From an uncultured virus (IMG/VR IMGVR_UViG_3300012919_001127) (Duplodnaviria; Heunggongvirae; Uroviricota; Caudoviricetes): a stretch of 20,000 bases of DNA. The position numbers and the translations under genes are program-made. The stretch is taken from positions 55,000 to 74,999 of IMG/VR virus record IMGVR_UViG_3300012919_001127. One strand, written 5' to 3'. The notes beneath the pieces were generated by a model. It was not told where the DNA came from. It saw nothing but the letters and a program-made list of their open reading frames with translations, and did not search any database. This document shows positions 1-20,000 of this stretch, one piece after another. The stretch's first letter is position 1. Each line of letters opens with the position of its first letter.

Positions 1-267
1 GTTGAACATCAAAATTTAACAAGTCAATATTTTGTTCCGACTTGTATAGAGTGGTGTGGTGTAGATTCAGATATGTATGTAACCAGCAACAACGAAGAAG
101 CAGGTTCACAGAGGTTAGTAAATAAAATATACTTTCCTTTGTTAGAAAAGCAAGGTGAATTTAGTAAAGTAAAGGAAATAAATTATAGAAACACAGAACA
201 GATTGTTTGGAAACTAAACGCACATAAGTTTTTAGAAAATTTAAGAAAGTACCCATGTATAAAATAG
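1..267 (+). CDS. Hypothetical protein, 5'-truncated by the window edge
   Basis: Frame 1 is open from base 1 (VEHQNLTSQYFVPTCIEWCGVDSDMYVTS...), so the ATG at 73 is probably internal. It overlaps the next gene by 13 nt. Confidence 0.75.
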   Translation, partial: VEHQNLTSQYFVPTCIEWCGVDSDMYVTSNNEEAGSQRLVNKIYFPLLEKQGEFSKVKEINYRNTEQIVWKLNAHKFLENLRKYPCIK

Positions 268-1247
268 AAGATATCAAAGCAATACATTTAGAAGTCACAA
301 GTAGGTGTCAAGCAAAGTGTCCTATGTGTGCAAGACGTATCAATGGAGGTCCTTTGAATCCTTTTATGGGGTTAGATGAAATAAGCATAGACAAATTTAT
401 GGAATGGTTTCCAATAGACTTTATAAAACAACTTAATCATCTTGCAATATGTGGTAACTTAGGTGATCCTATTGTCGCAAAAGATACTTTGCCTATATAC
501 GAATATTTGAGAGAAGCAAATCCTACCATGACTTTACAAATGCACACAAACGGAAGTGGTAGAACTAAAGAGTGGTGGCAAAAAATTGCAAAACTACGAG
601 TACAAACTGTTTTTGCAATAGATGGACTAGCAGATACTCATGCCAAGTATAGAATAAACACTGATTGGAAAAAAATAATTGACAATGTAATGACTTTTGT
701 TGATGCTGGTGGAAAAGCAAGATGGGATATGCTAGTGTTCCAACACAATGAACATCAAGTTGAAGAGTGTAGAACTTTATCGCAAAGATTAGGTATGGAA
801 AGTTTCACTATAAAACACACAACACGTTTTAAAGATGGTAAGTTTGATGTTCTTAATGAACAAGGACAAACAATAGATACATTATATCCAACAGAATTAA
901 GTAAAAAGATGATGGGCAAGGTTAAAAAAGCATCTGCTGAACAGCTACCTACAATAAAATGCAAAGCAGTGAAGGATAGTATGCTGTATGTAAGTGCTTT
1001 AGGTAGTGTAACTCCTTGTTGTTGGTTAGATCAGCAGTTTTATCCGCATACACATGAGAATAGAATAGATTACATGAACAAAATTAAGGTTTGGCCTAAC
1101 TTAAATAATACTACTATGAAAGATATATTTGCAAGTGGCTACTTTGACCTTATAGCTGGTTGTTGGAATACAACAGGCTTGAAAGAATGTTCAAAACAAT
1201 GTGGCAGTTTTGACAAATTAAATGAACAATTCGTAGAAAGGACGTAA
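255..1247 (+). CDS. Radical SAM protein with C-terminal SPASM/twitch-like domain (type A)
   Basis: CxxxCxxC motif CQAKCPMC; GNLGDP at the GGEP position; HTNG; AIDG; C-terminal C...GSVTPCCW...CSKQC. Confidence 0.9.
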   Translation: MYKIEDIKAIHLEVTSRCQAKCPMCARRINGGPLNPFMGLDEISIDKFMEWFPIDFIKQLNHLAICGNLGDPIVAKDTLPIYEYLREANPTMTLQMHTNGSGRTKEWWQKIAKLRVQTVFAIDGLADTHAKYRINTDWKKIIDNVMTFVDAGGKARWDMLVFQHNEHQVEECRTLSQRLGMESFTIKHTTRFKDGKFDVLNEQGQTIDTLYPTELSKKMMGKVKKASAEQLPTIKCKAVKDSMLYVSALGSVTPCCWLDQQFYPHTHENRIDYMNKIKVWPNLNNTTMKDIFASGYFDLIAGCWNTTGLKECSKQCGSFDKLNEQFVERT

Positions 1248-1248
1248 A

Positions 1249-1539
1249 ATGATATTTTGGATAGGATTTACAGTGATGGTGTTGAATGAAGGATTTGTAA
1301 TAATGCGTCATGTACACCCTTGGTTTGCTAACAAAAGAGATCATCTAATTGCAACGTATGGTGCGAAGTGGAAAAAGTTTCACGCAACACTTGATTACGT
1401 ATGGATAGGTGGTGTCAGTTTAGGAATACTGTTAGATTTTTCTAATTGGAAATTATATGCAACAGCATTAGGAATCTTTTGGGGTATAGTTGCCGTAGGT
1501 GTTTACTTACCACTGTTAATAAAGAAACTTAAAAAATGA
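1249..1539 (+). CDS. Small integral membrane protein (about 3 hydrophobic segments)
   Basis: Hydrophobic stretches MIFWIGFTVMVL, VWIGGVSLGILL and ALGIFWGIVAVGVYLPLLI; basic C-terminus; starts 1 nt after the upstream stop; ATGA overlap with the next gene. Confidence 0.8.
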   Translation: MIFWIGFTVMVLNEGFVIMRHVHPWFANKRDHLIATYGAKWKKFHATLDYVWIGGVSLGILLDFSNWKLYATALGIFWGIVAVGVYLPLLIKKLKK

Positions 1540-2273
1540 AAAAGAAAACACTTGCATACATAATTGGCGGTGAAGCTAGATTGGTAGCAGAAACGTTTAG
1601 ACAAGATGAAATTTATCAACAGTTGTGTGAGAAGTACAAGGTGCATACGTATATACACAGTTGGACACAGCTTGGTAGATGGACCAAAGCGAATGAAAAG
1701 TATCGTTTTGGTACAAGGCCAGAAACCTCAAAGTTTTATCCGCCTGATTTTGAGATAGTAAAAAATTACAGGGAAGTTATCATGGAAGAGTATAGCATAT
1801 ACAATCCTAGGTTTATTGAAGTTGAAGATTATGATACATCTTTCAATGTTGAAAACTTTCCTTGTGGACAATATATTAGCAGGGCAAAAGCATTTAGAAG
1901 CATAGCTGGATTTAATTTAAAGAACGCAGAAAAATACGATTATGTTTGGTTAGGAAGATCTGATGCGGCGGGCAAAGGTCAGTTGCCAGAGTTTCAAAAA
2001 GGCAAAATACATTGTCCTGAAATAAGTTTTGATGACAACATTTTTAGAGCCGAAGATTGGTATTATGCAGGACCATATGATATGTTTAAAAATTTAGTTG
2101 TATGGGCAGATGATCCTATTACATCAATACAATCGATAATTAACAATCCTTGGATTATGGAATTAGGAGATAGAGTAAAGAATACACACGTTTGGCAAGC
2201 CATACTTACTGGTGATGCAGGAGAAAATATTTTTTTAAGAGATGAAATAAAATGGAAACTGTTAACTTACTAA
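1536..2273 (+). CDS. Putative glycosyltransferase-like protein
   Basis: Pattern AYIIGGEAR...HTYIHSW...YDYVWLGRSD...DWYYAG resembles small phage/polysaccharide-locus GT-like proteins (SGxxR..FIHxW..YDxxxRxRxD). The ORF is solid; the function is inferred. Confidence 0.5.
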   Translation: MKKKTLAYIIGGEARLVAETFRQDEIYQQLCEKYKVHTYIHSWTQLGRWTKANEKYRFGTRPETSKFYPPDFEIVKNYREVIMEEYSIYNPRFIEVEDYDTSFNVENFPCGQYISRAKAFRSIAGFNLKNAEKYDYVWLGRSDAAGKGQLPEFQKGKIHCPEISFDDNIFRAEDWYYAGPYDMFKNLVVWADDPITSIQSIINNPWIMELGDRVKNTHVWQAILTGDAGENIFLRDEIKWKLLTY

Positions 2274-2836
2274 TACTTGATTACGATGGCACACTTGCAG
2301 ATTGCAAGGAACTGCATCAACAGGCTTTTAGAAAGGCTTGTATGAAAGTGAATAACGCAATACGTTATACTGACGAAGAAGTAGAAGGAATGCCTACCTT
2401 TGTTAAGATTGATTATTTGAAAGCAAAAGGATATCAGTTTGACGAAACACTATTAATGGATCTTAAACAAGAATATACAATGAATGATATTAGCAAATAT
2501 GTTAAGTTTGATCAAGAACTAAAAGATATATTTGTTAGATTAAGCAAAAAATATAGACTTGCAGTTTGTTCAAATGCTACTCGTAAATTTGTAGATAAAA
2601 GTTTAGCAATACAAAAGTTAGATATGTTTGAGCCTGTGTGTACAGCAACAGAACACAAACCTAAACCAGAAGTTGATATGTATTACAATGCCATGTATCA
2701 TTACGGAGTATCGCCAATGCAAACAGTAATATTTGAAGATAGTCCACTAGGAATACAAGCGGCAACTTCAACCACGGCTACTGTAAAGCAAGTTAAAAAT
2801 GTAGAACATTTAAAGGGGTTGTTGAATGAGTATTAA
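2252..2836 (+). CDS. HAD-superfamily phosphatase (subfamily IA / beta-PGM-like)
   Basis: Motif I DYDGTLAD, motif II CSNA, motif III KPKP, motif IV FEDS. Confidence 0.9.
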   Translation: METVNLLILDYDGTLADCKELHQQAFRKACMKVNNAIRYTDEEVEGMPTFVKIDYLKAKGYQFDETLLMDLKQEYTMNDISKYVKFDQELKDIFVRLSKKYRLAVCSNATRKFVDKSLAIQKLDMFEPVCTATEHKPKPEVDMYYNAMYHYGVSPMQTVIFEDSPLGIQAATSTTATVKQVKNVEHLKGLLNEY

Positions 2837-3530
2837 GTTAATAATGCCTATGGCAGGTGATGGAAACAGGTTCAAAGAAAAAGGATATGATATACCCAAG
2901 CCTTTGGTTCCTGTAAAAGGTATACCAATGTTTCAATATGCTGAACAACAGATAGGTATTGACTTTGATGAACGTATTTTTATAGTGCGTAAGGATCATA
3001 ACATCACTGACAAAATTAAAGATTTATATTCTAATGCAACAGTCATAGAACTGGACCAACTTACAGAAGGTACTGCTTGTACACTTTACAAAGCCAAAGA
3101 ACTATTCGCTGAAGGAGATAGTGTGTTTGTTAGCAACTGTGATCAAAGTGTTGCATGGGATAGCAACAAGGTTAGAATAATTATAGACAATGGTATAGAT
3201 GGACTTATAGCAACCTTTACGTGTCCGGATAAAAATCCTAAATGGAGTTATGCAAAAACAGTTGCAGACAAAGTTGTAGAGGTTGCAGAAAAGAAAGCAA
3301 TATCAGACAGAGCAACAGTAGGATATTATTATTGGCGTGATGCAAAACAAATGTTTAGGAACATAGATCAAATGATTGAAGCTAATGATAGGGTCAACAA
3401 TGAATTTTACACTTGCCCTGTGTATAATTACACTATTAAGGAAGGTGCAAATGTGTGTGCATTTGATGTTGTTTCAATGCAAGGTATTGGGACACCAGAA
3501 GATCTAGAAAGTTACATAAATGAAAATTGA
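2826..3530 (+). CDS. Nucleotidyltransferase / GT-A fold protein (BcbE-like NTP transferase)
   Basis: N-terminal IMPMAGDGNRF...PKPLVPV signature; TEGTA; SNCDQ; EVAEK; NNEFY; GIGTPEDL. Confidence 0.85.
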   Translation: MSIKLIMPMAGDGNRFKEKGYDIPKPLVPVKGIPMFQYAEQQIGIDFDERIFIVRKDHNITDKIKDLYSNATVIELDQLTEGTACTLYKAKELFAEGDSVFVSNCDQSVAWDSNKVRIIIDNGIDGLIATFTCPDKNPKWSYAKTVADKVVEVAEKKAISDRATVGYYYWRDAKQMFRNIDQMIEANDRVNNEFYTCPVYNYTIKEGANVCAFDVVSMQGIGTPEDLESYINEN

Positions 3531-4128
3531 TATTAATGACATAAAATTTTGGATGGATGCAATCCGCAACAGTGATGATAGAGATCGCACACTTGAAACT
3601 TTTTGGGGAGGGCAAATCAAAAGCAAGTTGTGGTTAATAGAACAACTTGAGAAACACAAAGCAATTAGAAACGCAGAATGTATCATACACGGAGGTTGGA
3701 ATGGATTGTTGGCTTGTATGATATTCAATAGTGAACTTGGAATAAAACATATTACTAGCATAGACATAGATCCTAAATGTAAAGAAATTGCATCAACAAT
3801 GAATAAACGTTATGAGATGGAAGGTAAATTTGAATCTGTTACAGCAGATATGTGTGAATATGAATACAAAACTAATCCTTATTTTGTAATTAATACAAGT
3901 TGTGAACACATAACACAGGAACAATATAACAAGTGGTTAGATAAAGTGCCAGGTGATGCACAGATTGTTTTACAAAGCAACAATTATTTCGAACTAGAAG
4001 AACACGTGAATTGTATGAAAAGTCTTGCAGATTTTGAAAGAAAAAGTAAATTAAAAGTTTCTGAAAAGATGGAACTTGAATTACCTAAGTATACAAGATA
4101 TATGTTAATAGGAAGGAAAGATGACTAA
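3520..4128 (+). CDS. Class I SAM-dependent methyltransferase-like protein
   Basis: Motif I-like IIHGGWNG, acidic SIDID after beta2, TADM, VINTSCEH. Confidence 0.65.
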   Translation: MKIDINDIKFWMDAIRNSDDRDRTLETFWGGQIKSKLWLIEQLEKHKAIRNAECIIHGGWNGLLACMIFNSELGIKHITSIDIDPKCKEIASTMNKRYEMEGKFESVTADMCEYEYKTNPYFVINTSCEHITQEQYNKWLDKVPGDAQIVLQSNNYFELEEHVNCMKSLADFERKSKLKVSEKMELELPKYTRYMLIGRKDD

Positions 4129-5425
4129 AACTTTTTGCCCTTTGCCTTGGATACATTTAGCTACAAGACCTAATGGAGATGTTAGAGTGTGTTGTACTGC
4201 CAATGCCAGTGGTGCAGGTAAAGAAGATGAAAAGACAGCAGGACTTGTTAAGAAAGATGGTATAGCAATGAATTTGCGTGACCATACAATAGAAGAAGTG
4301 TGGAACAGTGAACACATGAGAAGAACAAGACTGCAAATGTTAAATGGCGAAGTGCCAAGCAGTTGCGTAAAATGTTTTAATGAAGAAGCAAAAGGTATAA
4401 CAAGTAAACGCCAATGGGAAACTGAAGAATGGAAACAACGTTTAGACTTTAACAAACTTATTGCAAGTACACAAGATGATGGTACTGCACCTGTAAATAT
4501 TCCTTACTTTGATCTTCGTTTAGGTAACTTATGTCAACTTAAATGTGTAATGTGTAGTCCACATGATAGTTCAAGTTGGATCAAAGAATGGAAACTACAA
4601 TATCCACAGTATAAAAACAAAGATTTAATTGCAGATCAAGGCTGGGACGATCAATATGATTATACTTGGTACAAGAAAGGATCTTTTATAGATTCGATGA
4701 AAAGTCAAGCAAAGCACATACAGGAACTATACTTTGCAGGTGGTGAACCATTATTGATACCTGAACACTATGCAATATTAGAATTTATGGTTGCGGAAGG
4801 ATATGCAAAAGACTGTAATTTAAGATATAATTCAAATGGTTTAGAATTACCAGACAAATTATTTCAGTTATGGGATCATTTCAAAGAAATTAGATTTAAT
4901 TTTAGCATAGATGCTTACGGAACACGTAATGAATATATACGTTATCCAAGCAAGTGGTCGGACGTTGAAACCAACTTAAAAAGACTTGATCAAAATACAA
5001 AGGACAACACAGTTATCAATATTGCCTGTGCAGTACAATTATTAAATGCAGGGTACATAGATGAACTAGCTGAATGGAAAATGGATCAAGGATTTAGTAA
5101 AATCAATCCTTCAATGTTCGGCGGAGGAATAATAGGAACACATTTAGTCTATTTGCCATCATACTTGAACGTACAAGTTTTACCTAAATCAGCTAAAGAT
5201 TGGATTAAGGAAAAAGTAGAAACTTTTATAGATAGACAAAAATTTAATTTAGAATTTAATCAACATCCGTATGGAGCACAACGTTGGCATGGTTTGTTAA
5301 AATACATGATGCAAGAAGACTGGAGTCACAAGTTACCAGCTTTACAAGAATATTTAAAAGTAACAGATGAAAGACGTGGGACAGATTTTAGAAAAACGTT
5401 TCCTGAACTAGGACAGTTTATATGA
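4121..5425 (+). CDS. Radical SAM protein with N-terminal twitch/SPASM-like domain (type B)
   Basis: N-terminal CPLPW...NGDVRVCC...CVKC precedes CQLKCVMC; AGGEP; YNSNG; FSIDA; YIRYP. Confidence 0.9.
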   Translation: MTKTFCPLPWIHLATRPNGDVRVCCTANASGAGKEDEKTAGLVKKDGIAMNLRDHTIEEVWNSEHMRRTRLQMLNGEVPSSCVKCFNEEAKGITSKRQWETEEWKQRLDFNKLIASTQDDGTAPVNIPYFDLRLGNLCQLKCVMCSPHDSSSWIKEWKLQYPQYKNKDLIADQGWDDQYDYTWYKKGSFIDSMKSQAKHIQELYFAGGEPLLIPEHYAILEFMVAEGYAKDCNLRYNSNGLELPDKLFQLWDHFKEIRFNFSIDAYGTRNEYIRYPSKWSDVETNLKRLDQNTKDNTVINIACAVQLLNAGYIDELAEWKMDQGFSKINPSMFGGGIIGTHLVYLPSYLNVQVLPKSAKDWIKEKVETFIDRQKFNLEFNQHPYGAQRWHGLLKYMMQEDWSHKLPALQEYLKVTDERRGTDFRKTFPELGQFI

Positions 5426-6012
5426 GAAAAATAATTGTAACAGGCAGTGAAAGTGTAATAGGAAAAGCTATAATGGAGGGTCTGTGGTGGTTTGTTGATG
5501 ATTACGAGATAATAGGACTTGATAAGAAAAATGGTCAAGATGTGCTAGACAATCTTGAGCTGATAGCAACAGCAGACATACTGATCAACAACGCATATAT
5601 TCCTGTAGATCAAAACGCATTGTTTATGGCTTGGTGTAAGACAAACAAGGACAAGGCCAAACTGTGTGTAAATATTAGCAGTCAAATTGCTAGTGCAGAA
5701 GATCCTAGCAAGTTTGCAACAGAACAGTATTACATAGATAAAAAGTATATGGACGAACAGAGTGTAGAGATAAACAAGAATCATTGGAAGTGCAAAGTTA
5801 GTGTAATAAGCCCTAACATCACTAAATCAAATTTATCTGAGCTAAACCTAGCAACGGGGCCTTTTAAAAAATGGGTTGAAAATTTATATAGTACCCACGA
5901 AAAAAATGGTACTTTGATAAAAGAAGAATCAATATCAAATTGTGTAAAATACATAATTGAAAGTTGGTTAGAAGGAACACACATTTCAAGAATAGAGGTT
6001 AGGAACCCATGA
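5422..6012 (+). CDS. Short SDR-like NAD(P)-binding oxidoreductase
   Basis: KIIVTGSESVIG, DILINNA, VNISS, catalytic YxxxK (YYIDK), VISP. Confidence 0.7.
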   Translation: MRKIIVTGSESVIGKAIMEGLWWFVDDYEIIGLDKKNGQDVLDNLELIATADILINNAYIPVDQNALFMAWCKTNKDKAKLCVNISSQIASAEDPSKFATEQYYIDKKYMDEQSVEINKNHWKCKVSVISPNITKSNLSELNLATGPFKKWVENLYSTHEKNGTLIKEESISNCVKYIIESWLEGTHISRIEVRNP

Positions 6013-6920
6013 AACTAACATACAAAGATCCTGCAAAAAATAATTGGTTCCTAGTCAGTTGGACATTGTCTAACAAGTGTAATTATAGATGTGAATACTG
6101 TCCAGACATATTACATAATGGAAGTACAGGACAACCTCAATGGTCAACTGTAAAAAGATTTGTGCAAAACTTTAATTTAAAAGATAAAAAAATTTGTTAT
6201 AGATTAAGTGGAGGAGAACCTACTTATTGGAAACACTTTATTGATCTTGCAGAACTTGTTAAAGAAGAAGGTCACAAGTTTACCTTTATAAGTAATGGCA
6301 GTCAAAGTCCTGAGTATTTTAAAAAGATTGCTCCTTACACAGATGGTATGATGTTAAGTTATCATAAAGCATACGCAAATCCTGAACATTTCATAAAAAT
6401 TATAAATGAAAGCAAAATAGAAACTGTGATAAACATGATGTTATTGCCTTGTGACTTCGAAGAAATTTTTGCACTTGCTGAAAAAATTTATAGCTCAACT
6501 GCAAGAGCTAGTATAGTTCCTAAGGTTATAGTTGACAAAACAAGTTCTGAAAACATCACAAATGAAGTTATGACATACACAGAAGCACAAAAACAATTAA
6601 TTAAAGATTGGCCTTTTTCACGTAAAGTAAATGATGAAGAATTACATAGGGGTGCTATGATGTTAAATGATGAAGTTGTAAATGCTAATGATTTAATATT
6701 GCAAGATAAAAACAAGTTTAGTGGTTGGAACTGTTGGGCAGGATTACACGGAGTCAATATAGATATGTGGGGAAATATGTATAGGGCTGACTGTCAGTTT
6801 GGCGGAGCAATAGGAAACTTAGAAAGATACAAACTGCCAAAGGAAAAAATACTTTGTGGCAAAGAAAGATGCAGTTGTTTAAGCGACATATACATAAGGA
6901 AAGAAAATGAAAAAGTATAA
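6009..6920 (+). CDS. Radical SAM protein with C-terminal Cys-rich twitch-like domain (type C)
   Basis: CNYRCEYC; SGGEP; ISNG; C-terminal CWAG...GNMYRADC...CGKERCSC. Confidence 0.9.
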   Translation: MKLTYKDPAKNNWFLVSWTLSNKCNYRCEYCPDILHNGSTGQPQWSTVKRFVQNFNLKDKKICYRLSGGEPTYWKHFIDLAELVKEEGHKFTFISNGSQSPEYFKKIAPYTDGMMLSYHKAYANPEHFIKIINESKIETVINMMLLPCDFEEIFALAEKIYSSTARASIVPKVIVDKTSSENITNEVMTYTEAQKQLIKDWPFSRKVNDEELHRGAMMLNDEVVNANDLILQDKNKFSGWNCWAGLHGVNIDMWGNMYRADCQFGGAIGNLERYKLPKEKILCGKERCSCLSDIYIRKENEKV

Positions 6921-7098
6921 AATTGGATTAATTCAGGCAGTTATAGTTTTAGTGCCAACATACTTGGTAGCATATCTCACAGATAAGATGGTTTATACCA
7001 TTCCAATGTTAGCGGCCGCAAGTTTTATTGCCGCATCATTTAGTAAAGACACAACTACTAAACGTATTGATGATATCTCTAAAGAAGGTAAAGATTAA
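6907..7098 (+). CDS. Small membrane protein (2 hydrophobic segments)
   Basis: IGLIQAVIVLVPTYLVAYL and VYTIPMLAAASFIAASF; fills the gap between flanking genes; TAATG overlap with the next gene. Confidence 0.75.
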   Translation: MKKYKIGLIQAVIVLVPTYLVAYLTDKMVYTIPMLAAASFIAASFSKDTTTKRIDDISKEGKD

Positions 7099-7649
7099 TG
7101 AAAATATTAGTTACAGGTAATCCAAACTATGAAGGACTATGCAAAGGTATATACGAAGCATACAATCATAATTTTGTAGAATTTATAGGAAGATGGAATG
7201 GTTGGGATCTTACAGATTATGAAAAGGTAGCAAATTATGCCAAGTCATATGATGTATTTGTTAACAGCCAATACGGTCCTAACGGAGAACAAGTTGAGAT
7301 GTTAGATGCTGTATACGAAAAGTTTGATAGCGGACACATAATTAACATAAGCAGTACAAGTTCTTACTGGGGTGATGGTTACAGTCCTAAAAATTACGTC
7401 GAAAATAAAACTTTGCTTGACGGAAGAAGCAAAAGGTTAGCAAAAAATGTATGCTGGGGTGACAGTAAAATACGGATCAGTAATATTGCTTTTGGTCAAC
7501 TAAACAGTCAAAGTCAAAAAAATAAAGATGATAATAGACACAAGATAAGTTTGCTCGAAGCAGGAAAATATGTGAAGTGGGTAATAGATTCACCTCGTGA
7601 TATTAATCTACATTATATCGCTTTGGATCCTATCCAAACAGGGGAGTAA
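7098..7649 (+). CDS. Short SDR-like NAD(P)-binding oxidoreductase
   Basis: KILVTGNPNYEGL, DVFVNS, IINISS, YxxxK (YVENK). Confidence 0.7.
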   Translation: MKILVTGNPNYEGLCKGIYEAYNHNFVEFIGRWNGWDLTDYEKVANYAKSYDVFVNSQYGPNGEQVEMLDAVYEKFDSGHIINISSTSSYWGDGYSPKNYVENKTLLDGRSKRLAKNVCWGDSKIRISNIAFGQLNSQSQKNKDDNRHKISLLEAGKYVKWVIDSPRDINLHYIALDPIQTGE

Positions 7650-8754
7650 GTTCTGGACAATGATCTAGTACTTTTGTGTTTCTAATTTTATCTAAATCAT
7701 TTGTGTAGTTTATAAAAGCATCAATATACTTAGGTGCTTGTTCAGATTGTGTATAATTTATCTTAGGTAATTTAAAATCAATCTTATCTAATATCTCGTT
7801 AGGCAAAACTCTTGGATTCAAATAAGGAGGGGCTGTAACCACATTGTTGAAATATATTTCCCAGTTGTCTTTTTTGTTTTCTTCAAACCACCAATGTATT
7901 TTATCAAGGTGTGCTATGTTGTAAGCCATCACAGTCACAGCAATAATTATTCTATCAAAATCATATTGTTTTAAATTTTCATTTAGTTGTTCAAATGTAA
8001 AATTTTTTCCGCCTCGAATGTATTCATATAAACCATCTGTGCCTTCCAAACTCACAGTCCATTTTGTTTCCTTGTATTGTTTGGCCAATTGAGCGACTTC
8101 TTCATCTACTATTGTGCCATTAGTAGTCCAGTCTATAGTTATGTTCTTTGCTATTCCTAAATCAATAAATTTTTTAAGTATCAACTTATTTGCAGGTTCC
8201 ATGTAAGGTTCGCCACCTTTGATGCTAAGATATCTCAAGTTCATGAATGGTGTTGGATCCTCAAACAGTCTAGCAACTATTTCATCGCTTTTATTGGTGT
8301 ATCCGAATTCTGGATCATCTATTCTACGTCCATAGGGGTTACCGTTTTGTGCTAATTTAAGATCATCTTTTACCCAAGCACTTGAATTTATTCCATCGCA
8401 CATTCTACACTTTAGGTTACAGATATTGCTCATATTGAATTCCAAAAAGTAGATATCTGTGAAGTTTTTGGAGTAATCATAATTGGTATTTTCTAGCATT
8501 GGATTCAAAATATCTTTGAAAAATAATCTCCTGCTATGACCCACAGAGAGCTCTTTTAAAGCACATTGTTGACACTCGGGCGGTAAGTGGCCCGCTCTTA
8601 TTGAATCACGTGTGTATGACGCTGTATAGCTGTTTAAAAGGTCATTTAAAGACGATTCTAGCACGTTTCCGTAACGTTTTAAGTACACACCATCAGGTAC
8701 TATGTCACCATTAAAACGTACCAAAATACTATGCCATGGTGCGAAGCATTTCAT
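7630..8754 (-). CDS. Radical SAM protein with N-terminal twitch-like domain (type B, degenerate CC)
   Basis: CFAPW...NGDIVPDG...CQQC, then CNLKCRMC, KGGEP, TTNGT, SLEG, YIRG. Start moved from the TTG at 8769 to the ATG at 8754, which has GGAG about 9 nt upstream. Confidence 0.88.
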   Translation of the reverse strand: MKCFAPWHSILVRFNGDIVPDGVYLKRYGNVLESSLNDLLNSYTASYTRDSIRAGHLPPECQQCALKELSVGHSRRLFFKDILNPMLENTNYDYSKNFTDIYFLEFNMSNICNLKCRMCDGINSSAWVKDDLKLAQNGNPYGRRIDDPEFGYTNKSDEIVARLFEDPTPFMNLRYLSIKGGEPYMEPANKLILKKFIDLGIAKNITIDWTTNGTIVDEEVAQLAKQYKETKWTVSLEGTDGLYEYIRGGKNFTFEQLNENLKQYDFDRIIIAVTVMAYNIAHLDKIHWWFEENKKDNWEIYFNNVVTAPPYLNPRVLPNEILDKIDFKLPKINYTQSEQAPKYIDAFINYTNDLDKIRNTKVLDHCPELTPLFG

Positions 8755-9193
8755 CGTATTTTTCTCCAAAAGCTGATCGTAGATCGCTTTCCATTTTTGT
8801 TTGAATTTCCTGTGGTGAATATATTCCTACGTTATCCCAATCTACAAGATAAGTGTTATCTCCATCTAAAAGTATATTGCTTAACACCCAATCATAGTGT
8901 GCATATGGCAAAGTTTGATCTAATGTTTCATTACAAAAAGTGTATATCCTTTTAAAAAATTTTGGTGTGTGTGGCACTTTGTTTGCCGGCGTGCCAGGTA
9001 CTATATGATAATCTATGAACATACTATTTTTTGTTGTGCCATAATCTAATACATATCCTGGTATCACTTTGTCTAAAATAGATATGTGTTCTTCTAAAGC
9101 AAACTCATCATGGATATACCAAACCTTACGATATCTATCATCTAACTTGTAAACTTCTCTTTTCTTTTCTATATTCTTTTTAATTAATTCCAT
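8729..9193 (-). CDS. Minimal protein-kinase-like (APH/choline-kinase-like) phosphotransferase
   Basis: Catalytic-loop motif HxDxxxxN (HYDWVLSNIL) followed by metal-binding LVDWD; N-terminal REVYK...YRK. Confidence 0.7.
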   Translation of the reverse strand: MELIKKNIEKKREVYKLDDRYRKVWYIHDEFALEEHISILDKVIPGYVLDYGTTKNSMFIDYHIVPGTPANKVPHTPKFFKRIYTFCNETLDQTLPYAHYDWVLSNILLDGDNTYLVDWDNVGIYSPQEIQTKMESDLRSAFGEKYDEMLRTMA

Positions 9194-10214
9194 AGTATCC
9201 TGCCACTTCTGGTAAGTATTCCTTGATGCTACAACCTCTATTTTTATCTAACACACCTATCCACTTTTTAAATTCTTCCTGCTTTTCAATACTTGTAGGG
9301 TGATTCATCCAGTAATCAAAATGTGCAATATTATCTTTCATTGCCTGTGGTGCATTTTTTATGTGTAGACAATCTGGAGTCATTAGCAAGTTATCAAATA
9401 TTTCTAATTGGTTTGCCTGTGCATATTCAACATAGTCATCATATTCTAAAACATTCATTATTTGCACAGTAGGACCTAAACTTACATCAGCTACCTCTCT
9501 AAATTTATTAAGGTTGTATTCTACAACGTCCCAATTACTACCCCAACGTATGTAATCATTTGTTCTGCCTATACCATCAATGCTAAAGTTCATGTTCACA
9601 CGTTCGAATCTTTTAAGTTCATTAAAAACTTTCGGATTAAACAATGTACCATTAGTGTTAAATCTTACTTCAACTGATGGATCTAGTTTTGCAAGAAACT
9701 TGTTTAGTCCTTTCACCATCATAGGTTCACCACCTGTAAGATATACTTCTCTTAAATTAGGATTACGTGCTAATGTTTCTCCCTGCTCATCTGTATACCA
9801 GTTGTATAAGCCATAGTCAAACCAACCCCATGGGCTTTCGCCTTTTGCCTTTAGTTCTTTGTGTTCTTCGTACAAACTACTAGAACTACCTGGGTAACAC
9901 ATGGTACAACGTAAATTACATTGGTTTCCAAACCTTATATCCAAATGACTTATACCAGGACCATATTCTCTTGGTCTTTGACGCATACTTGGTCTACCAG
10001 CTTCTTCCATCAGCTGACATTTTTTACAAGCATCTGGCCATTCATTGTTAGCAAGTTGCTCACGTGCTTTTGTAGGTGTTTCACTTGTTAACCATTGTTC
10101 TGGAGTCATTTGTTTTATGTTTTCTTTGTTTGTCTTTTCATTACTAATGCAACACAAACGAAACTCGCCATCAGGGCGTATCATTACTTGATGATCTAAA
10201 TACTTACACCTCAC
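9180..10214 (-). CDS. Radical SAM protein with N-terminal twitch/SPASM-like domain (type B)
   Basis: GTG start overlapping the upstream gene end; C...DGEFRLCC...CKKC, then CNLRCTMC, TGGEP, NTNGT, FSIDG, YIRWG. Confidence 0.9.
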   Translation of the reverse strand: MRCKYLDHQVMIRPDGEFRLCCISNEKTNKENIKQMTPEQWLTSETPTKAREQLANNEWPDACKKCQLMEEAGRPSMRQRPREYGPGISHLDIRFGNQCNLRCTMCYPGSSSSLYEEHKELKAKGESPWGWFDYGLYNWYTDEQGETLARNPNLREVYLTGGEPMMVKGLNKFLAKLDPSVEVRFNTNGTLFNPKVFNELKRFERVNMNFSIDGIGRTNDYIRWGSNWDVVEYNLNKFREVADVSLGPTVQIMNVLEYDDYVEYAQANQLEIFDNLLMTPDCLHIKNAPQAMKDNIAHFDYWMNHPTSIEKQEEFKKWIGVLDKNRGCSIKEYLPEVAGYYGIN

Positions 10215-11232
10215 CGCAAGTTACCTCACAAATTTTAAACCTATTTTCACTAGACCAACTTTCAGGCAGATCTTGTGCAAAGAAAGGACTGTCTAATATA
10301 ACTTCCAAAGGCATATCATTTACATTAAGCCAATCTACTTTTGATACTTCTTGTGCATAAGGGCTTTCTACTTCTCTTGGATATCTGTCAGATAGCATAT
10401 AGCAACAAGGAAATACTTCACCAACATGGCTAACTTGTATTTTTCTTTTCTTTTGCCATTTACAAGTTATACATGATTTCTTGAATCCATCAGCCAAACT
10501 GCCATGTTTTTGTTTCAAATCTTGTAAACGTTTTAAATTATCTAGTTTGCTTGTATCGTATTTTATTGTACGAGCTTGTTCCCGTTTGTTGGCTTTAAAT
10601 TTTTCTATTGCTTTATTAACCATACTATTCATAGCAGTAAAAGTATGTCCACCATTTATATCAAATTTTGCAAATCCCATTTTTTTACTTAATTCTTCTG
10701 CTTGTTCTAATTGATGTGCATTGTGTTCAAACACCAACATACGCCATCTTCCTAATCCACCTGCGTCTAAAAATGCTTGGGCGTTTTCCATTACCTTATT
10801 CCATTTAACATTTCTTCTGTAAAGATGATTTGTATCTTCTAAACCGTCTATGCTAAAAACTACATGAGTTGGAAATGGAAAGTCTTTTAATTTATTTGCT
10901 AGTTCATCAAAGTATTTAGGCTGTCTCATACCACCATTGGTATGTATATGGATAATAGGTTTTTTGTAGTTTTTTAAATAATCCAAACATTCAAACAAGT
11001 GTGGACTTACCAAAGGATCTCCATATGATCCATTGAATACAATCTGATTGATGTTTCTTAAAACATTCTCACTGAACAGATTTTTGAATGTTGCAGGACT
11101 CATATGTTCAAGAGGCATACGTGGATTTACTTCTACTCCACCTAAATTTCTTGAACAGTTACCACACATAGCATTACAATGAGCAGTAAAATCTACTGTA
11201 ATCGTATCTATATCTTCTATATCCAAATACAT
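10204..11232 (-). CDS. Radical SAM protein with C-terminal SPASM/twitch-like domain (type A, paralog of 255..1247)
   Basis: CNAMCGNC, GSYGDP, HTNGG, FSIDGLEDT, C-terminal C..C...GEVFPCC...CEVTC. Start reassigned to ATG 11232 (MYLDIEDI) because it aligns with the paralog start MYKIEDI and removes the overlap with the divergent gene. Confidence 0.9.
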   Translation of the reverse strand: MYLDIEDIDTITVDFTAHCNAMCGNCSRNLGGVEVNPRMPLEHMSPATFKNLFSENVLRNINQIVFNGSYGDPLVSPHLFECLDYLKNYKKPIIHIHTNGGMRQPKYFDELANKLKDFPFPTHVVFSIDGLEDTNHLYRRNVKWNKVMENAQAFLDAGGLGRWRMLVFEHNAHQLEQAEELSKKMGFAKFDINGGHTFTAMNSMVNKAIEKFKANKREQARTIKYDTSKLDNLKRLQDLKQKHGSLADGFKKSCITCKWQKKRKIQVSHVGEVFPCCYMLSDRYPREVESPYAQEVSKVDWLNVNDMPLEVILDSPFFAQDLPESWSSENRFKICEVTCGEV

Positions 11233-11233
11233 G

Positions 11234-11247
11234 ATAAGTATATTTAA
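11234..11247. promoter_or_regulatory. Candidate pair of crossed late-promoter-like motifs (ATAAGTA on +, TTAAATA on -)
   Basis: Located in the 35-bp spacer between divergent starts 11232(-) and 11268(+); both resemble the TATAAATA/ATAAATA/ATAAGTA motifs in other intergenic gaps of this window. Confidence 0.45.
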
Positions 11248-11267
11248 CTGAATTATAAGGTAGTTTA

Positions 11268-11978
11268 ATGGATATAGAACATACAAAAACCCTGGAAACA
11301 TTCTGGAAAGAACACAAAAAAGACGTAAATTTTTTATACCAAGATGTATTTGACCCAATGTGGTTAGTTGAAGAATCGCACTGGCCTTTCTTTAAACTAT
11401 CAGCACTGGACAATCAACCCTGGGCTAAAATGCACAACGAAGCAGAAAGTTTATTAGAGTCTTTTCATGATCATAGAGACGATTATGGCTATGGTTGGAA
11501 GAGCTTAACAATACATGGATTAGATGATGATACTCAAACATTAGACAGTTATGGTGATAGAGACAAAGTAATTAAACAATTAGATTGGACATGGGTAGCA
11601 GACAAGTGTCCTACTGTGAAAACTTTTTTAAAAGATGTATGGCCTATGGAGTATCTCAATAGAGTAAGATTTATGTTGCTGGAACCAGGAGGATATATTT
11701 TGCCTCATCAAGATAGAGATGCAAAAGAAAAAAGATTAAGTGTATGCAACATAGCCTTAAACAATCCTGATGACTGTGAATTTATTTTTAAGGATCATGG
11801 AGTCGTGCCTTTCCAAGATAAAGGCGGTGCGTTTTTAATGGACATCAGCAACGTTCATGCAGTATGGAACAAAAGTGATGTACCAAGGATACACATGATA
11901 ATACATGGTGAAGTTGGTAGAAGATTACGTGATATGTTTTATGTGTTAAGACAAAGTTATTATACTAATAGGGGATAA
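11268..11978 (+). CDS. 2OG-Fe(II) oxygenase, aspartyl/asparaginyl beta-hydroxylase-like
   Basis: RVRFMLLEPGGYILPHQD (HxD), distal HAVWN, RIHMIIH (2OG-binding Arg). Confidence 0.85.
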   Translation: MDIEHTKTLETFWKEHKKDVNFLYQDVFDPMWLVEESHWPFFKLSALDNQPWAKMHNEAESLLESFHDHRDDYGYGWKSLTIHGLDDDTQTLDSYGDRDKVIKQLDWTWVADKCPTVKTFLKDVWPMEYLNRVRFMLLEPGGYILPHQDRDAKEKRLSVCNIALNNPDDCEFIFKDHGVVPFQDKGGAFLMDISNVHAVWNKSDVPRIHMIIHGEVGRRLRDMFYVLRQSYYTNRG

Positions 11979-11979
11979 A

Positions 11980-12105
11980 ATGTTAACTTGGTTTTTAGTA
12001 GGAATATTAGCTGGCTTGTTCATTAGATGTACTTGTAAGCCACACAAATCTGTTGACGACAAGTTCAAAGATCCTTGGAACTGGACAGGGTTCGGAGGCG
12101 GTTAA
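11980..12105 (+). CDS. 41-aa small protein, MLTWFLVGILAGLFIRCTCKPHKSVDDKFKDPWNWTGFGGG (not in ORF track)
   Basis: ATG 1 nt after the upstream stop, with AGGGG upstream; its TAA overlaps the next ATG (TAATG); it fills the whole gap. Confidence 0.75.
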   Translation: MLTWFLVGILAGLFIRCTCKPHKSVDDKFKDPWNWTGFGGG

Positions 12106-13568
12106 TGAAAGACTGGAACAGTTTAACACACGATAGATACTATGAGGATCATAAATCAAATAATCAAGTAGGCATAGGCATACTTAATATTTCAAGAGAT
12201 ATAAAAAATGAATTTGTAAGTAAACGTTGTTTAGAAATGACTTACTTTTACATCAATAGAATGATGAAAATGAAAGTTGCAGATTACGTTGGCAGTTGGC
12301 ACAAGGTTGAAAACATTCTCGAAAACAGTCTTGCAAAAGGACATGAATATTGTATAGTGGCCGCACAAGGATTGTTGCTTTATAGGGGTCCTAATCTAGT
12401 AGAACAAAGTTTAAAATATGCAAAAGAAAATCCTAACTTCTTTGTTTGTGGACACATCATGGACAAAAAAGGACAAAATCATTATGCAACCAAAGGAGCA
12501 TATCCTGGTTTGCATAGGCAGTATCTTTTTGTTAATCTAAAAGTTTGGGAGCAACTTGGCAAACCTCCTTTTGATGAACTAGGAATATTTAGAGACAGAA
12601 TGCCTAAGTTACAAAATTTTAAATTAAGTGAAGAAAAGATTCATGCTGAATATACACCTGCTTGGATTGATACTGCTGAAGGAGAAAAACATTGGGCAAA
12701 AACATCAGACGGTAGTAATTGGATTGATATTGCTTTAAGGTCAAATATCAAAATTGATAATCTAACAAATGACATGAGGGCTTGTAAAGTATTTCTTTAT
12801 CCATATAACAAATCAGACATTCTTTCAAAGAGCTGGATACAAAAAGATTATTGGCAAGTTGAAGAATTAAATTATAATCAAAAGGCTTGGTTACGTAAAT
12901 TAGACCAACAGGAAAAGATAGAAAAGGATCGTGTTTATGCTTTTAATACAGAAACTTTATCTGGCGAAGGTAAACGCACAGAAAACATTGATCATTTGTT
13001 TAGTGTGGCCGCTGGATTCAAACCTTTGTCTATATTAAACACAAATGGATTCAATGATAACACAAAAATACATTACTTTGATTGGTGCGATGCAAGTTTA
13101 TTATATAAAAGAGACCTTATAGAAACGTGGAATGGGGTCGATTTACACCTGTGGCTGTTGGAACATGATCTAAAGTATAACTTTGCCTCAACGTATAGAG
13201 GCAATTACGAGCCATTTTGGCAACAAGAATTACAAGACTTTGGTGGTGCTGAAGCATTTAAAAAACTATGGGATAGGTATGTAAACCTTGAACACAATTA
13301 TTACAAAATAGATATTGTAAACGAACCCACAAACCTTTTTAATATTATCAAAGCACAGGAAGGCAACAAAGTTTTATGGACTACCAATGTATGGTCAAGT
13401 GAAATGTTGCATTGGAATCAAGGTCCAGATCAACTTAAAATCAAATGGAACAAATTTAAAAGTTTGGTACCTGATGATTTAATTTTGTATGGTGATGATT
13501 ATTGTGCTATTGATATGCGTCAAAGCATACGTGACAATTTAAATATAAGTTATCCTGAATTTAATTAG
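12105..13568 (+). CDS. Hypothetical protein, 487 aa
   Basis: Long ORF. Start reassigned from TTG 12075 to ATG 12105 (GGAGG at 12094-12098, TAATG coupling). No family recognised with confidence. Confidence 0.85.
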   Translation: MKDWNSLTHDRYYEDHKSNNQVGIGILNISRDIKNEFVSKRCLEMTYFYINRMMKMKVADYVGSWHKVENILENSLAKGHEYCIVAAQGLLLYRGPNLVEQSLKYAKENPNFFVCGHIMDKKGQNHYATKGAYPGLHRQYLFVNLKVWEQLGKPPFDELGIFRDRMPKLQNFKLSEEKIHAEYTPAWIDTAEGEKHWAKTSDGSNWIDIALRSNIKIDNLTNDMRACKVFLYPYNKSDILSKSWIQKDYWQVEELNYNQKAWLRKLDQQEKIEKDRVYAFNTETLSGEGKRTENIDHLFSVAAGFKPLSILNTNGFNDNTKIHYFDWCDASLLYKRDLIETWNGVDLHLWLLEHDLKYNFASTYRGNYEPFWQQELQDFGGAEAFKKLWDRYVNLEHNYYKIDIVNEPTNLFNIIKAQEGNKVLWTTNVWSSEMLHWNQGPDQLKIKWNKFKSLVPDDLILYGDDYCAIDMRQSIRDNLNISYPEFN

Positions 13569-14957: not shown

Positions 14958-14965
14958 TATTTATA
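14958..14965 (-). promoter_or_regulatory. T4-type late promoter TATAAATA
   Basis: Exact match to the T4 gp55 late consensus in the intergenic gap, 28 nt upstream of the fibre ATG, followed by AGGAG. Confidence 0.8.
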
Positions 14966-16514: not shown

Positions 16515-16592
16515 TTAAAATACCAATACGTTAATGATTATTAAAGAAACAATCAAGAGTGCCGTGTAGTCCCAATATGGAAATTGATCCAT
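16515..16592 (-). CDS. 25-aa hydrophobic peptide, MDQFPYWDYTALLIVSLIIINVLVF (not in ORF track)
   Basis: ATG overlaps the VWA gene stop (TAATG) with GAGG upstream; its stop lies 1 nt before the next ATG; it fills the gap exactly. Confidence 0.65.
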   Translation of the reverse strand: MDQFPYWDYTALLIVSLIIINVLVF

Positions 16593-17899: not shown

Positions 17900-17922
17900 C
17901 TTTTCCTAATTGTTATAATACT

Positions 17923-17951
17923 ATTATATGATATTTAATTGAGTTTGTCAA
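17923..17951 (-). promoter_or_regulatory. Consensus sigma70 (early) promoter TTGACA-N17-TATAAT
   Basis: -35 at 17951-17946, -10 at 17928-17923, 17-nt spacer, upstream of the AGGA RBS and ATG 17899. Confidence 0.85.
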
Positions 17952-17953
17952 CC

Positions 17954-17988
17954 AAAAAGAGTGGGGGAAAACCGAAATTTTCCCCCTA
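17954..17988 (-). terminator. Rho-independent terminator after the MoxR gene
   Basis: Minus strand reads GGGGGAAAAT-TTCG-GTTTTCCCCC then ACTCTTTTT; UUCG loop. Confidence 0.8.
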
Positions 17989-18006
17989 GTATTCCAAAAT
18001 ATTGGA

Positions 18007-19969: not shown

Positions 19970-20000
19970 CTACCAGTTCTTACCACCATCTACGGTAACA
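19970..20000 (-). CDS. Probable 3' end of an upstream gene (...VTVDGGKNW*)
   Basis: Open frame entering from the window edge and ending at TAG 19972-19970; too short to confirm. Confidence 0.4.
   Translation of the reverse strand, partial: VTVDGGKNW

Follow-up and report, generated by a model that had tools for sequence, protein, structure and literature searches.

What would a tailed phage do with a dense run of radical S-adenosylmethionine (SAM) genes placed directly behind its fibre genes? This question is raised by a stretch of 20,000 nucleotides (hereafter, the window) of an uncultured virus, which covers bases 55000–74999 of the 74,999-base IMG/VR virus record IMGVR_UViG_3300012919_001127; the contig ends at window position 20000. 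An original prediction, made from the letters of this window, had described a biosynthetic island in which six radical SAM genes and a set of tailoring enzymes build an unusual modified sugar or another decoration. Our results suggest that the island probably encodes a pathway, located in the cytoplasm, in which a glycan is first assembled and then edited by radical chemistry. We favour this reading because the identifiable partners of the radical SAM genes handle sugars or small groups and because the radical SAM genes co-vary with transferases down to ~35% identity.

The window contains the distal half of an island of ~27 kb (about 41.5–68.6 kb of the contig), ~14 kb more of which lie upstream. 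The island starts directly after four fibre-like genes, the first of which encodes a protein with Collar (1.9e-15) and Gp10_C domains, and two more proteins share the N-terminal ~90 residues of this protein. Nine radical SAM genes are found within about 21 kb, six of them in the window and three upstream. The coordinates of the island genes overlap or abut, which supports the translational coupling proposed earlier. The features of the window are listed below; frequencies refer to 80 viral loci, or to the 12 long ones among them, defined further on.

1..267, plus strand: 3' end of a 194-residue gene that starts upstream (contig 54682); no family match
255..1247, plus strand: radical SAM gene whose C-terminus is Cys-rich and SPASM-like, paralogous to 10204..11232; PF04055, 33.3 bits
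1249..1539, plus strand: 96-residue protein with two hydrophobic segments, variable cassette; phrog_31495; in 7/80 loci
1536..2273, plus strand: 245-residue protein, variable cassette; weak match to phrog_13607 only (3.4e-4)
2252..2836, plus strand: haloacid dehalogenase (HAD-IA) hydrolase, beta-phosphoglucomutase-like, variable cassette; HAD_2, 4e-21; TIGR01509 above cut-off; in 6/80 loci
2826..3530, plus strand: sugar-1-phosphate nucleotidyltransferase-like gene, variable cassette; phrog_3980, 8.6e-51
3520..4128, plus strand: class I SAM-dependent methyltransferase by fold, 202 residues; predicted structure; in 79/80 loci
4121..5425, plus strand: N-terminal-twitch radical SAM gene (NF033640), paralogue C; 426 bits against a cut-off of 170
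5422..6012, plus strand: short oxidoreductase of 196 residues, like short-chain dehydrogenases/reductases (SDR); N-terminal Rossmann and YxxxK motifs by eye; weak hidden Markov model (HMM) match, 1.6e-3
6009..6920, plus strand: radical SAM gene with conserved C-terminal Cys, paralogue of an upstream 320-residue gene; PF04055, 46.0 bits
6907..7098, plus strand: open reading frame (ORF) of 63 residues with a single transmembrane segment, dispensable; absent in a natural variant
7098..7649, plus strand: short SDR-like oxidoreductase of 183 residues; adh_short_C2, 0.0065; YxxxK by eye
7630..8769, minus strand: N-terminal-twitch radical SAM gene (NF033640), paralogue D, with a possible ATG at 8754; 225 bits
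8729..9193, minus strand: mini kinase-like protein of 154 residues; HxD...N...DWD motif; in 12/12 long loci
9180..10214, minus strand: N-terminal-twitch radical SAM gene (NF033640), paralogue E; 248 bits
10204..11232, minus strand: radical SAM/SPASM-like gene, likely start 11232, frame open to 11358; PF04055, 42.3 bits; SPASM, 22.0 bits
11268..11978, plus strand: Fe(II)/2-oxoglutarate oxygenase of the Asp/Asn beta-hydroxylase family; PF05118, 45.3 bits against 22.6
11980..12105, plus strand: ORF of 41 codons, hydrophobic at its N-terminus, with a TAA that overlaps the next ATG; in 4/80 loci
12105..13568, plus strand: two-domain protein of 487 residues with an N-terminal GT-A glycosyltransferase-like fold; predicted structure
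13565..14929, minus strand: tail-fibre-like protein with Mtd_N and beta-solenoid repeats, island border; PF18454, 4e-12
14958..14965, minus strand: TATAAATA, resembling a T4 late promoter and located 29 nt ahead of the fibre gene; motif scan

The six radical SAM genes reported in the window were all found to be open frames that carry the CxxxCxxC motif and match the Radical_SAM family (PF04055) at 33.3–52.7 bits, relative to a gathering score of 29.5 (52.7, 44.2, and 35.5 bits for 9180–10214, 7630–8769, and 4121–5425, respectively). The additional Cys motifs were confirmed as well: the SPASM family (PF13186) passes its cut-off of 21.5 bits in four genes (35.6, 26.6, 24.8, and 22.0 bits for those starting at 4121, 7630, 9180, and 10204) and reaches 18.3 bits, below the cut-off, in 255–1247, while 6009–6920 presents conserved C-terminal Cys residues with no match to this family. 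Three genes of the window and two genes upstream (313 and 401 bits) match the NCBIfam model NF033640 (N_Twi_rSAM) over its full length, whereas the remaining three radical SAM genes of the window score 21–47 bits and are not members. In the three members of the window, the twitch domain precedes the radical SAM core (SPASM match within residues 3–85), a feature absent from the original prediction; in 4121–5425, for instance, SPASM spans residues 6–85 and the core residues 134–301. Five of the nine radical SAM enzymes of the island thus present this inverted architecture. These five paralogues are diverged (24–32% identity); C6, C82, and C85 are invariant across them, and 7630–8769 has no twitch CC pair. 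The genes 255–1247 and 10204–11232 form another paralogous pair, with C236, C255, C256, C312, and C316 conserved in the former, and the relatives of the latter begin at its shorter form.

The N-terminal-twitch family is frequent in metagenomes, where we found 2101 proteins at E up to 1e-5, and it occurs on at least 625 viral stretches. In bacteria, a search with an alignment of 30 N-twitch sequences yielded 262 relatives among 284 matched stretches; the same search with a single N-twitch protein yielded none. The bacterial genes belong to Bdellovibrionota, Bacteroidota, Alphaproteobacteria, Elusimicrobiota, and one Synechococcus. They are mostly single genes, whereas the present island contains five diverged paralogues and related islands contain up to eight in tandem. 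To our knowledge, NF033640 is a catalogue entry to which no reaction has been assigned, and the literature that we searched did not mention any. For the island as a whole, the analysis shows families and folds of the genes, a predicted solubility of the enzymes, and a conserved linkage and position, whereas the substrates, the product, the target, and the reaction of each radical SAM enzyme are inferred.

The SPASM and twitch domains raise the possibility that the enzymes modify proteins or peptides directly, either a ribosomally synthesised and post-translationally modified peptide (RiPP) or the virion itself (thioether or C–C crosslinks, epimerisation, formylglycine), the sugar genes being incidental. 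The maturases PapB, StsB, YydG, and SkfB appear among the low-scoring matches and an Asp/Asn hydroxylase is found inside the island; in the text available of one study, oxygenases of the beta-hydroxylase family are predicted to act on co-encoded tail-collar proteins (PMC2938197). However, these maturase matches all fall far below their cut-offs and the N-twitch genes co-vary with transferases. We detected no RiPP recognition element (RRE) or PqqD domain in the nine radical SAM genes using Pfam at E up to 0.01, although a divergent RRE could escape HMMs, and we found no conserved precursor, peptidase, or exporter. The 41-codon ORF was considered as a RiPP precursor and rejected, as it is present in only 4/80 loci; the 63-codon ORF is present in 3/80. 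Direct modification of proteins or peptides is, in our view, very unlikely, and the RiPP alternative of the original prediction loses ground accordingly.

Two side observations concern these small ORFs. The 41-codon ORF (11980–12105) contains a CTC motif, ends in GGG, and overlaps the start of the GT-A-like gene through TAATG; in locus L045 it is 95% identical, against 73% for the neighbouring hydroxylase, and it is missing from most relatives. In addition, a contig from an RNA library (X16) links positions 6905 and 7097 through four other letters, and since it skips this segment it represents a natural variant without the 63-codon membrane ORF.

The identifiable genes of the island other than the radical SAM genes all encode sugar or tailoring enzymes. 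The predicted HAD phosphatase was recovered with Pfam, as was the predicted 2-oxoglutarate-Fe(II) oxygenase (1e-11), in which the HxD...H triad is visible as HQD and a later His. The methyltransferase-like assignment of 3520–4128 is supported by its predicted structure (predicted local distance difference test, pLDDT, of 88): Foldseek returned at least 500 chains led by methyltransferases with probability 1.00 and E-values of 3e-10 and below, the top PDB entries being DnrK (3e-10), NodS, and NTM1 with TM scores of 0.6–0.69, while Pfam gave only 0.0047. The nucleotidyltransferase is likely: its PHROG match is strong, but it remains just under the Pfam cut-off for NTP_transf_3 (24.7 against 27) and matches models of Arch_glmU/RmlA-type sugar-1-phosphate nucleotidyltransferases at 8e-12 and weaker, below their cut-offs. 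Other assignments hold in part. The two SDR-like genes present Rossmann and YxxxK motifs, but their HMM matches are weak (2e-4 to 1e-3, below cut-off, for 7098–7649 against KduD/FabG-type models); likewise, the kinase-like gene presents the HxD...N...DWD motif, but matches Pfam APH at 0.013 and OspG/SalKC in PDB profile searches at 0.02–0.05.

The glycosyltransferase-like assignment of 1536–2273 was not borne out, as this gene has no Pfam or NCBIfam match. For 12105–13568, the predicted structure suggests an N-terminal GT-A fold: VIA-align yielded Z-scores of 9–11 with 138–155 residues aligned over residues 26–279, from a model with a pLDDT of 63 and relative to a common background of Z 7–8. 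The matches include PBCV-1 A64R of a chlorovirus (Z 9.2) and mimivirus R699 (Z 9.9), and no match was found at the sequence level in Pfam or PDB profile searches. An Atlas look-alike of 12075–13568, a 688-residue cluster with PF05118 (score 0.84), hinted at a fusion with a hydroxylase but was too weak to be used.

Just upstream of the window, the island encodes an NDP-sugar (nucleoside diphosphate sugar) dehydrogenase (UDPG_MGDP, 1e-19; NDP-sugar 6-dehydrogenase; 1e-49 for the NDP-sugar dehydrogenase subfamily). Two upstream paralogues are GT8-like: a joint profile with their homologues from Ralstonia phage RsoM2USA matched glycogenin (4e-6) over the N-terminal half, including the DxD motif, and no match to Pfam PF01501 was obtained for the pair at E up to 5. 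Two small DxD proteins, here called small GT-A-like, presented a faint Pfam GT2 match (0.035) and no PDB match. Three further proteins carry GDS-type N-terminal motifs and look SGNH-like by eye. A family of 429 residues (u429) had no match at all in Pfam or PDB profile searches; a GT10 assignment for it was rejected, its Atlas score of 0.79 being at chance level. More generally, PDB profile searches gave nothing usable for 12105–13568, the methyltransferase, u429, and the small GT-A-like family.

These enzymes could alternatively make a soluble small molecule, such as an aminoglycoside-like or nucleoside-like pseudo-oligosaccharide. All the enzymes appear soluble, the N-terminal twitch aligns with that of BtrN from butirosin biosynthesis, and a weak match to cytosylglucuronate decarboxylase (3.6e-4) lies beside the NDP-sugar dehydrogenase; moreover, genes for DegT aminotransferases and for carbamoyltransferases, frequent components of pathways of this type, occur in related islands. 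However, the Pfam matches of the island included neither a cyclitol synthase nor an exporter or a self-resistance gene, and the presence of at least five transferase-like genes per island, together with the fixed position behind fibre genes, fits the decoration of a polymer or a protein better. A small-molecule product therefore appears unlikely.

We further analysed the conservation of the island across viruses. A search with 4121–5425 yielded 149 relatives among 151 matched viral stretches, from which 80 loci were kept; the 12 long loci are those with full flanks (55–100% identity). The order rSAM320 (the upstream 320-residue gene), rSAM330, NTwi-C, rSAM303, NTwi-D, kinase-like gene, NTwi-E was observed in all 12 long loci, with the methyltransferase in 11 and rSAM384 in 10 of them, and the hydroxylase and the GT-A-like protein come next wherever a long locus extends far enough. 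By contrast with this core, the variable cassette (HAD, nucleotidyltransferase, and the 96- and 245-codon genes) is present in only 5–9 of the 80 loci, mostly close relatives. A second search, with an alignment of the upstream paralogue NTwi-B, yielded at least 625 relatives among at least 637 matched stretches, and 76 viral loci with 35–63% identity were kept, many of them cut by contig ends. Using profiles of the island genes, we detected in this set the small GT-A-like gene (63/76), the GT8-like gene, usually paired (55/76), and u429 (65/76), as well as rSAM320/303 (40/76), the methyltransferase (12/76), and rSAM330/384 (9/76). The order at the head of the module hardly varies: a ~300-residue protein, a ~110-residue protein, two GT8-like proteins, a small gene, a GT-A-like protein, and an N-twitch radical SAM protein of ~460 residues, after which come one to eight additional N-twitch genes in tandem. 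The original prediction had named scattered homologues as evidence against itself, and the conserved order in both sets of loci instead indicates strong co-occurrence.

Radical SAM genes are also concentrated in the larger relatives: five of them contain 9, 9, 10, 8, and 8 matches to PF04055, and in a 268-kb relative all nine matches lie between 150.2 and 171.3 kb. We scanned nine diverse loci with Pfam (104 of 134 candidate ORFs; the 30 dropped were mostly far downstream or small). Their accessory genes include an NDP-sugar dehydrogenase, an epimerase/dehydratase, two DegT-type aminotransferases, two carbamoyltransferases, a sulfotransferase, four GDSL/DUF6071 proteins, and five B12-binding radical SAM genes. 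No Pfam match was obtained at E up to 0.001 for the GT8-like, GT-A-like, and u429-like members of these loci. The five B12-binding (class B) radical SAM genes are spread over four of the nine loci, and the loci with extra accessory genes are L207, L234, L246, and L202; just upstream of the last one are genes for adenylosuccinate synthetase and IMP dehydrogenase, which belong to purine metabolism.

The larger relatives also bear on the possibility that the sugars are attached to DNA, a sugar-bearing base shielding the phage genome. Phage glycosyltransferases and radical SAM enzymes are known in DNA modification pathways, and all the enzymes of the island would be cytoplasmic. However, a hydroxymethylase of the thymidylate synthase family (ThyA-type) was found in none of three large relatives, although this is not decisive because these relatives are only 35–75% complete. 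The island also contains no DNA-binding or nucleotide-kinase genes and is located in the fibre region rather than in the replication module. We consider DNA hypermodification, which the original prediction had listed as an alternative, to be extremely unlikely.

The proposal of an unusual modified-sugar decoration is, on the other hand, supported by all the identifiable genes other than the radical SAM genes and by the accessory genes of related islands. In such a pathway, the HAD-IA phosphomutase/phosphatase and the nucleotidyltransferase would supply an NDP-sugar, which the NDP-sugar 6-dehydrogenase and the two short SDRs might oxidise, reduce, or epimerise. The two GT8-like proteins, the two small GT-A-like proteins, the 12105–13568 protein, and the transferase-like family without Pfam match would then add sugars to an acceptor reachable from the cytoplasm, and the class I methyltransferase, the mini kinase, and the SGNH-type proteins would attach or remove small groups. 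Each of the nine radical SAM enzymes is expected to cleave SAM at the [4Fe-4S] cluster bound by CxxxCxxC and to abstract a hydrogen from an unactivated C–H bond, and the auxiliary twitch or SPASM-like cluster would resolve the radical, in the manner of dehydrogenases and epimerases of the BtrN type. Finally, the Asp/Asn hydroxylase possibly creates attachment sites on the fibres.

Because the island encodes soluble enzymes and lacks export machinery, the acceptor must be reachable from the cytoplasm. In a hydropathy scan of 19 residues at the likely starts, no enzyme presented a membrane-like segment, which was found only in the 96-, 63-, and 41-codon ORFs, and no flippase, polymerase, ligase, or polyprenyl-phosphate transferase was found among the Pfam matches of the ~27-kb island. 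We rank the phage's own fibre proteins first as the target of the glycan, a serious candidate that we nevertheless hold at somewhat less than even odds, and the host envelope, i.e., the core of lipopolysaccharide or lipooligosaccharide (LPS/LOS), second. Fibres are favoured because the module immediately follows fibre genes in phages of marine, soil, and Vibrio origin, because the hydroxylase adjoins the GT-A-like gene, and because of the published prediction for beta-hydroxylases and tail-collar proteins mentioned above. In addition, four upstream fibre-like proteins contain the Peptidase_G2 chaperone domain, and the island follows such genes in 4/9 diverse loci.

Cultured phages provide a further view of this question. 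In the phage collection, N-twitch matches were limited to three records: Ralstonia phage RsoM2USA and Vibrio phages K566 and K567. No match to the 320-residue radical SAM protein was found in phages using tblastn, and none of the cultured pelagiphages matched the radical SAM genes. The Ralstonia jumbo phage contains a short syntenic version of the island, in the same order, that includes a protein resembling the fibre N-terminus and homologues of the 120-residue protein (37% identity), both GT8-like proteins (34–37%), both small GT-A-like proteins (40–42%), one N-twitch radical SAM protein (35%), and the methyltransferase (35%). This module adjoins an NDP-sugar epimerase/dehydratase gene (1e-52) and genes for tail sheath and baseplate. 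In the RsoM2USA paper, the genes of the cassette are hypothetical and listed under no function, and the word 'radical' is absent. A second N-twitch radical SAM gene of this genome (126846–128228), 35% identical to the upstream paralogue, lies at a distance of ~90 kb from the fibre-side module, and the neighbours of this gene have no match to the island profiles. In Vibrio phages K566 and K567, four N-twitch-like radical SAM genes are interleaved with two GT8 genes, which pass Pfam PF01501 (8e-8 and 2.5e-12), and one GT4-like gene.

The Vibrio cassettes are relevant to the second-ranked target. The enzymes could work on the cytoplasmic side of the inner membrane and modify the lipid A-core or another glycoconjugate that the host then exports, and the altered cell surface might, for example, block superinfection or prevent progeny from sticking to debris. 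GT8 is a family of LPS/LOS core transferases, and the N-twitch/GT8 cassette of K566 lies two genes from an LpxC homologue and beside a gene that its depositors named PagP. The mini kinase is weakly similar to small kinases of sugar or Kdo (3-deoxy-D-manno-octulosonic acid) type. Glycosyltransferases in the host recognition clusters of pelagimyophages have moreover been read as modifiers of the O-chain by Zaragoza-Solas et al. (2020; PMC7029224). However, no membrane-embedded transferase, flippase, polymerase, or ligase was found in the ~27-kb island, the K566 gene named PagP has no Pfam match, and the module keeps its place behind fibre genes from marine phages to the soil Ralstonia phage. These results make remodelling of the host envelope possible but doubtful.

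Several observations weigh against a glycan-editing pathway, or against fibres as its target. Peptide maturation is the best-known role of SPASM/twitch radical SAM enzymes, and a substrate of protein nature still has to be reckoned with. The best matches of the radical SAM genes to NCBIfam equivalog models fall far below the cut-offs; as the original prediction had stated, no characterised pathway matches this gene set. Their PDB profile matches cover the shared core only (MoaA, SkfB, viperin, YydG, NifB, CteB-like), those of 6009–6920 (YydG and viperin) being confined to the N-terminal core; the alignment of the N-terminal twitch to the BtrN twitch (7e-7) is the sole PDB match beyond the core. 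Several of the transferase assignments are weak, considering the modest GT-A model, the faint GT2 match, and the absence of any match for u429. In the seven annotated bacterial loci (76 proteins scanned), NF033640 genes are lone genes with unrelated neighbourhoods, and for this reason no function is transferable from them and they lend no support to a sugar substrate: a TPR-methyltransferase follows the gene in 2/7 loci, and a GT2 gene and a methyltransferase gene are near it in 1/7, with no conservation. As to the fibre target, the LpxC homologue of K566 (Pfam, 1.3e-40) is found near the cassette, and the published reading of such islands is that they modify the host surface, according to the part of the source available (PMC7029224).

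Near-identical DNA (0.96–0.98 of the sampled words) occurs in 14 runs from marine or seawater metagenomes, of which seven may be the source of the contig, and parts of the window were found in four RNA-library runs. Two of these, from one study, present an even cover of the whole window, with contigs that cross the operons of both strands, and thus look like DNA carry-over; the other two, from other studies, contain short pieces at a depth of 0–9. The pattern in these four runs does not demonstrate transcription of the island and its contigs cannot rank the genes, which also counts against the proposed pathway.

We then compared the island to known systems. BtrN and other twitch enzymes of aminoglycoside pathways share with the N-twitch genes the auxiliary-cluster twitch, and the C–H chemistry on sugar-like substrates is the same as that proposed here. 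However, the twitch is C-terminal in BtrN and N-terminal in the island, otherwise only the generic core is similar, and aminocyclitol genes are absent from the island. HygY, SpeY, and NeoN are reportedly further twitch radical SAM enzymes of aminoglycoside pathways. PBCV-1 A64R and mimivirus R699, which 12105–13568 resembles by predicted fold, are soluble viral GT-A enzymes that act in the cytoplasm to decorate structural proteins, and virion glycosylation by mycobacteriophages is another virus-encoded case; we know of no virus-encoded virion glycosylation system that uses radical SAM enzymes.

Published accounts come closest in the fibre region of marine phages. The host recognition cluster has been described as a variable island of fibres and glycosyltransferases between VrlC and the neck protein gp14, with an Asp/Asn beta-hydroxylase listed as one of its core genes in pelagimyophages and cyanomyophages (PMC7029224). 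The available part of that paper gives neither an anatomy nor a function for radical SAM cassettes, and the present phage differs in being a jumbo phage whose ATPase is nearest to that of PA5oct. Nishimura et al. (2017) reported a 183-kb environmental genome of a marine T4-like phage with 12 radical SAM genes (PMC5332604), which may be related to the present phage; in the portion available, these genes are only counted among Fe-S genes, with no cluster, sugar link, or function given. Finally, Iyer, Abhiman, de Souza and Aravind (2010) proposed, in the part of their text available, that paired hydroxylases and tail-collar proteins reflect a hydroxylation followed by a second modification (PMC2938197). 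That second step was sulfation in their case, whereas here a GT-A-like gene follows the hydroxylase; the first of the fibre-like genes ahead of the island also encodes a Collar domain. Our search of the literature, supplements excluded, found no paper joining radical SAM enzymes, jumbo phages, and glycosyltransferases. Such cassettes have received only passing mentions in published papers, and the island can be regarded as a probable fibre-region glycan island of a phage, in which uncharacterised radical SAM enzymes reach an unprecedented number.

If the proposed pathway is correct, a group of giant phages common in aquatic environments devotes about 8% of its genome to oxygen-sensitive radical chemistry on sugars; we know of no characterised phage glycan pathway that applies such chemistry. 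The N-twitch family would also gain its first functional context. We tentatively suggest, as a speculative extension, that N-terminal-twitch radical SAM enzymes might form a new class of glycan editors, rewriting sugars after their transfer (epimerisation, oxidation, deoxygenation, C–C bonds), which jumbo phages would have amplified and shuffled (one to eight tandem copies) to diversify the glycan of their own tail fibres. Glycan editing of this kind would be a radical-chemistry counterpart to the diversification of receptor-binding proteins. Since short versions of the island exist in cultured phages of two kinds, the question is directly testable, and the answer would decide whether marine T4-like phages use the glycan islands of their fibre region to decorate the virion or to alter the host surface.

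The fibre gene at the border of the island was confirmed through its Mtd_N domain, but the late promoter assigned to it is less certain: the single TATAAATA of the window compares with 2.65 matches expected by chance. As none precedes the operons of the island, this motif was also rejected as an island promoter. A scan for sigma-70-type promoters remained at background (92 sites, 81.9 expected).

The viral origin of the contig, which the original prediction had proposed to verify from hallmark genes, is well supported. The first 20 kb of the record, which CheckV rates as about 20% complete, contain Pfam matches to T4_baseplate, gp53, gp25, and a gp5-type OB/spike protein, together with Rad50/Mre11-type gp46/47 and a SegE homing endonuclease, and the gp23 capsid protein was found in 3/3 large relatives (about 2e-80). 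Island relatives occur on contigs of up to 267,783 bases; the longest is rated 75% complete, which implies a genome of about 350 kb, so the phage is a jumbo phage. When the window was compared in full with 50,697 phage records by megablast, no match was returned, and no cultured phage presents nucleotide similarity to it. The MoxR-type ATPase (18007–19092) is nearest to that of jumbo phage PA5oct (49.5%), followed by Phosso and Atu_ph07.

Several minor features lie outside the island. In the window, 16592–19092 (minus strand) contains this MoxR-type AAA ATPase (phrog_1297, 1.5e-103) next to a DUF2201 metallopeptidase/VWA protein (Pfam, 3.9e-43); the PHROG label 'HNH endonuclease' of the latter was rejected, as its domains give no support for it. 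The SegE-type gene encodes a GIY-YIG homing endonuclease (contig 6050–6472, 2.2e-34) and adjoins the Rad50/Mre11-type genes. After the baseplate genes, and upstream of the window, an open frame of 4907 residues (contig 19878–34601) contains only small modules, namely a chitin-binding-type CBM_5_12 module, FG-GAP, and a stretch resembling the N-terminus of the T7 tail fibre, and this protein may be the counterpart of the giant VrlC-type protein of marine T4-like phages.

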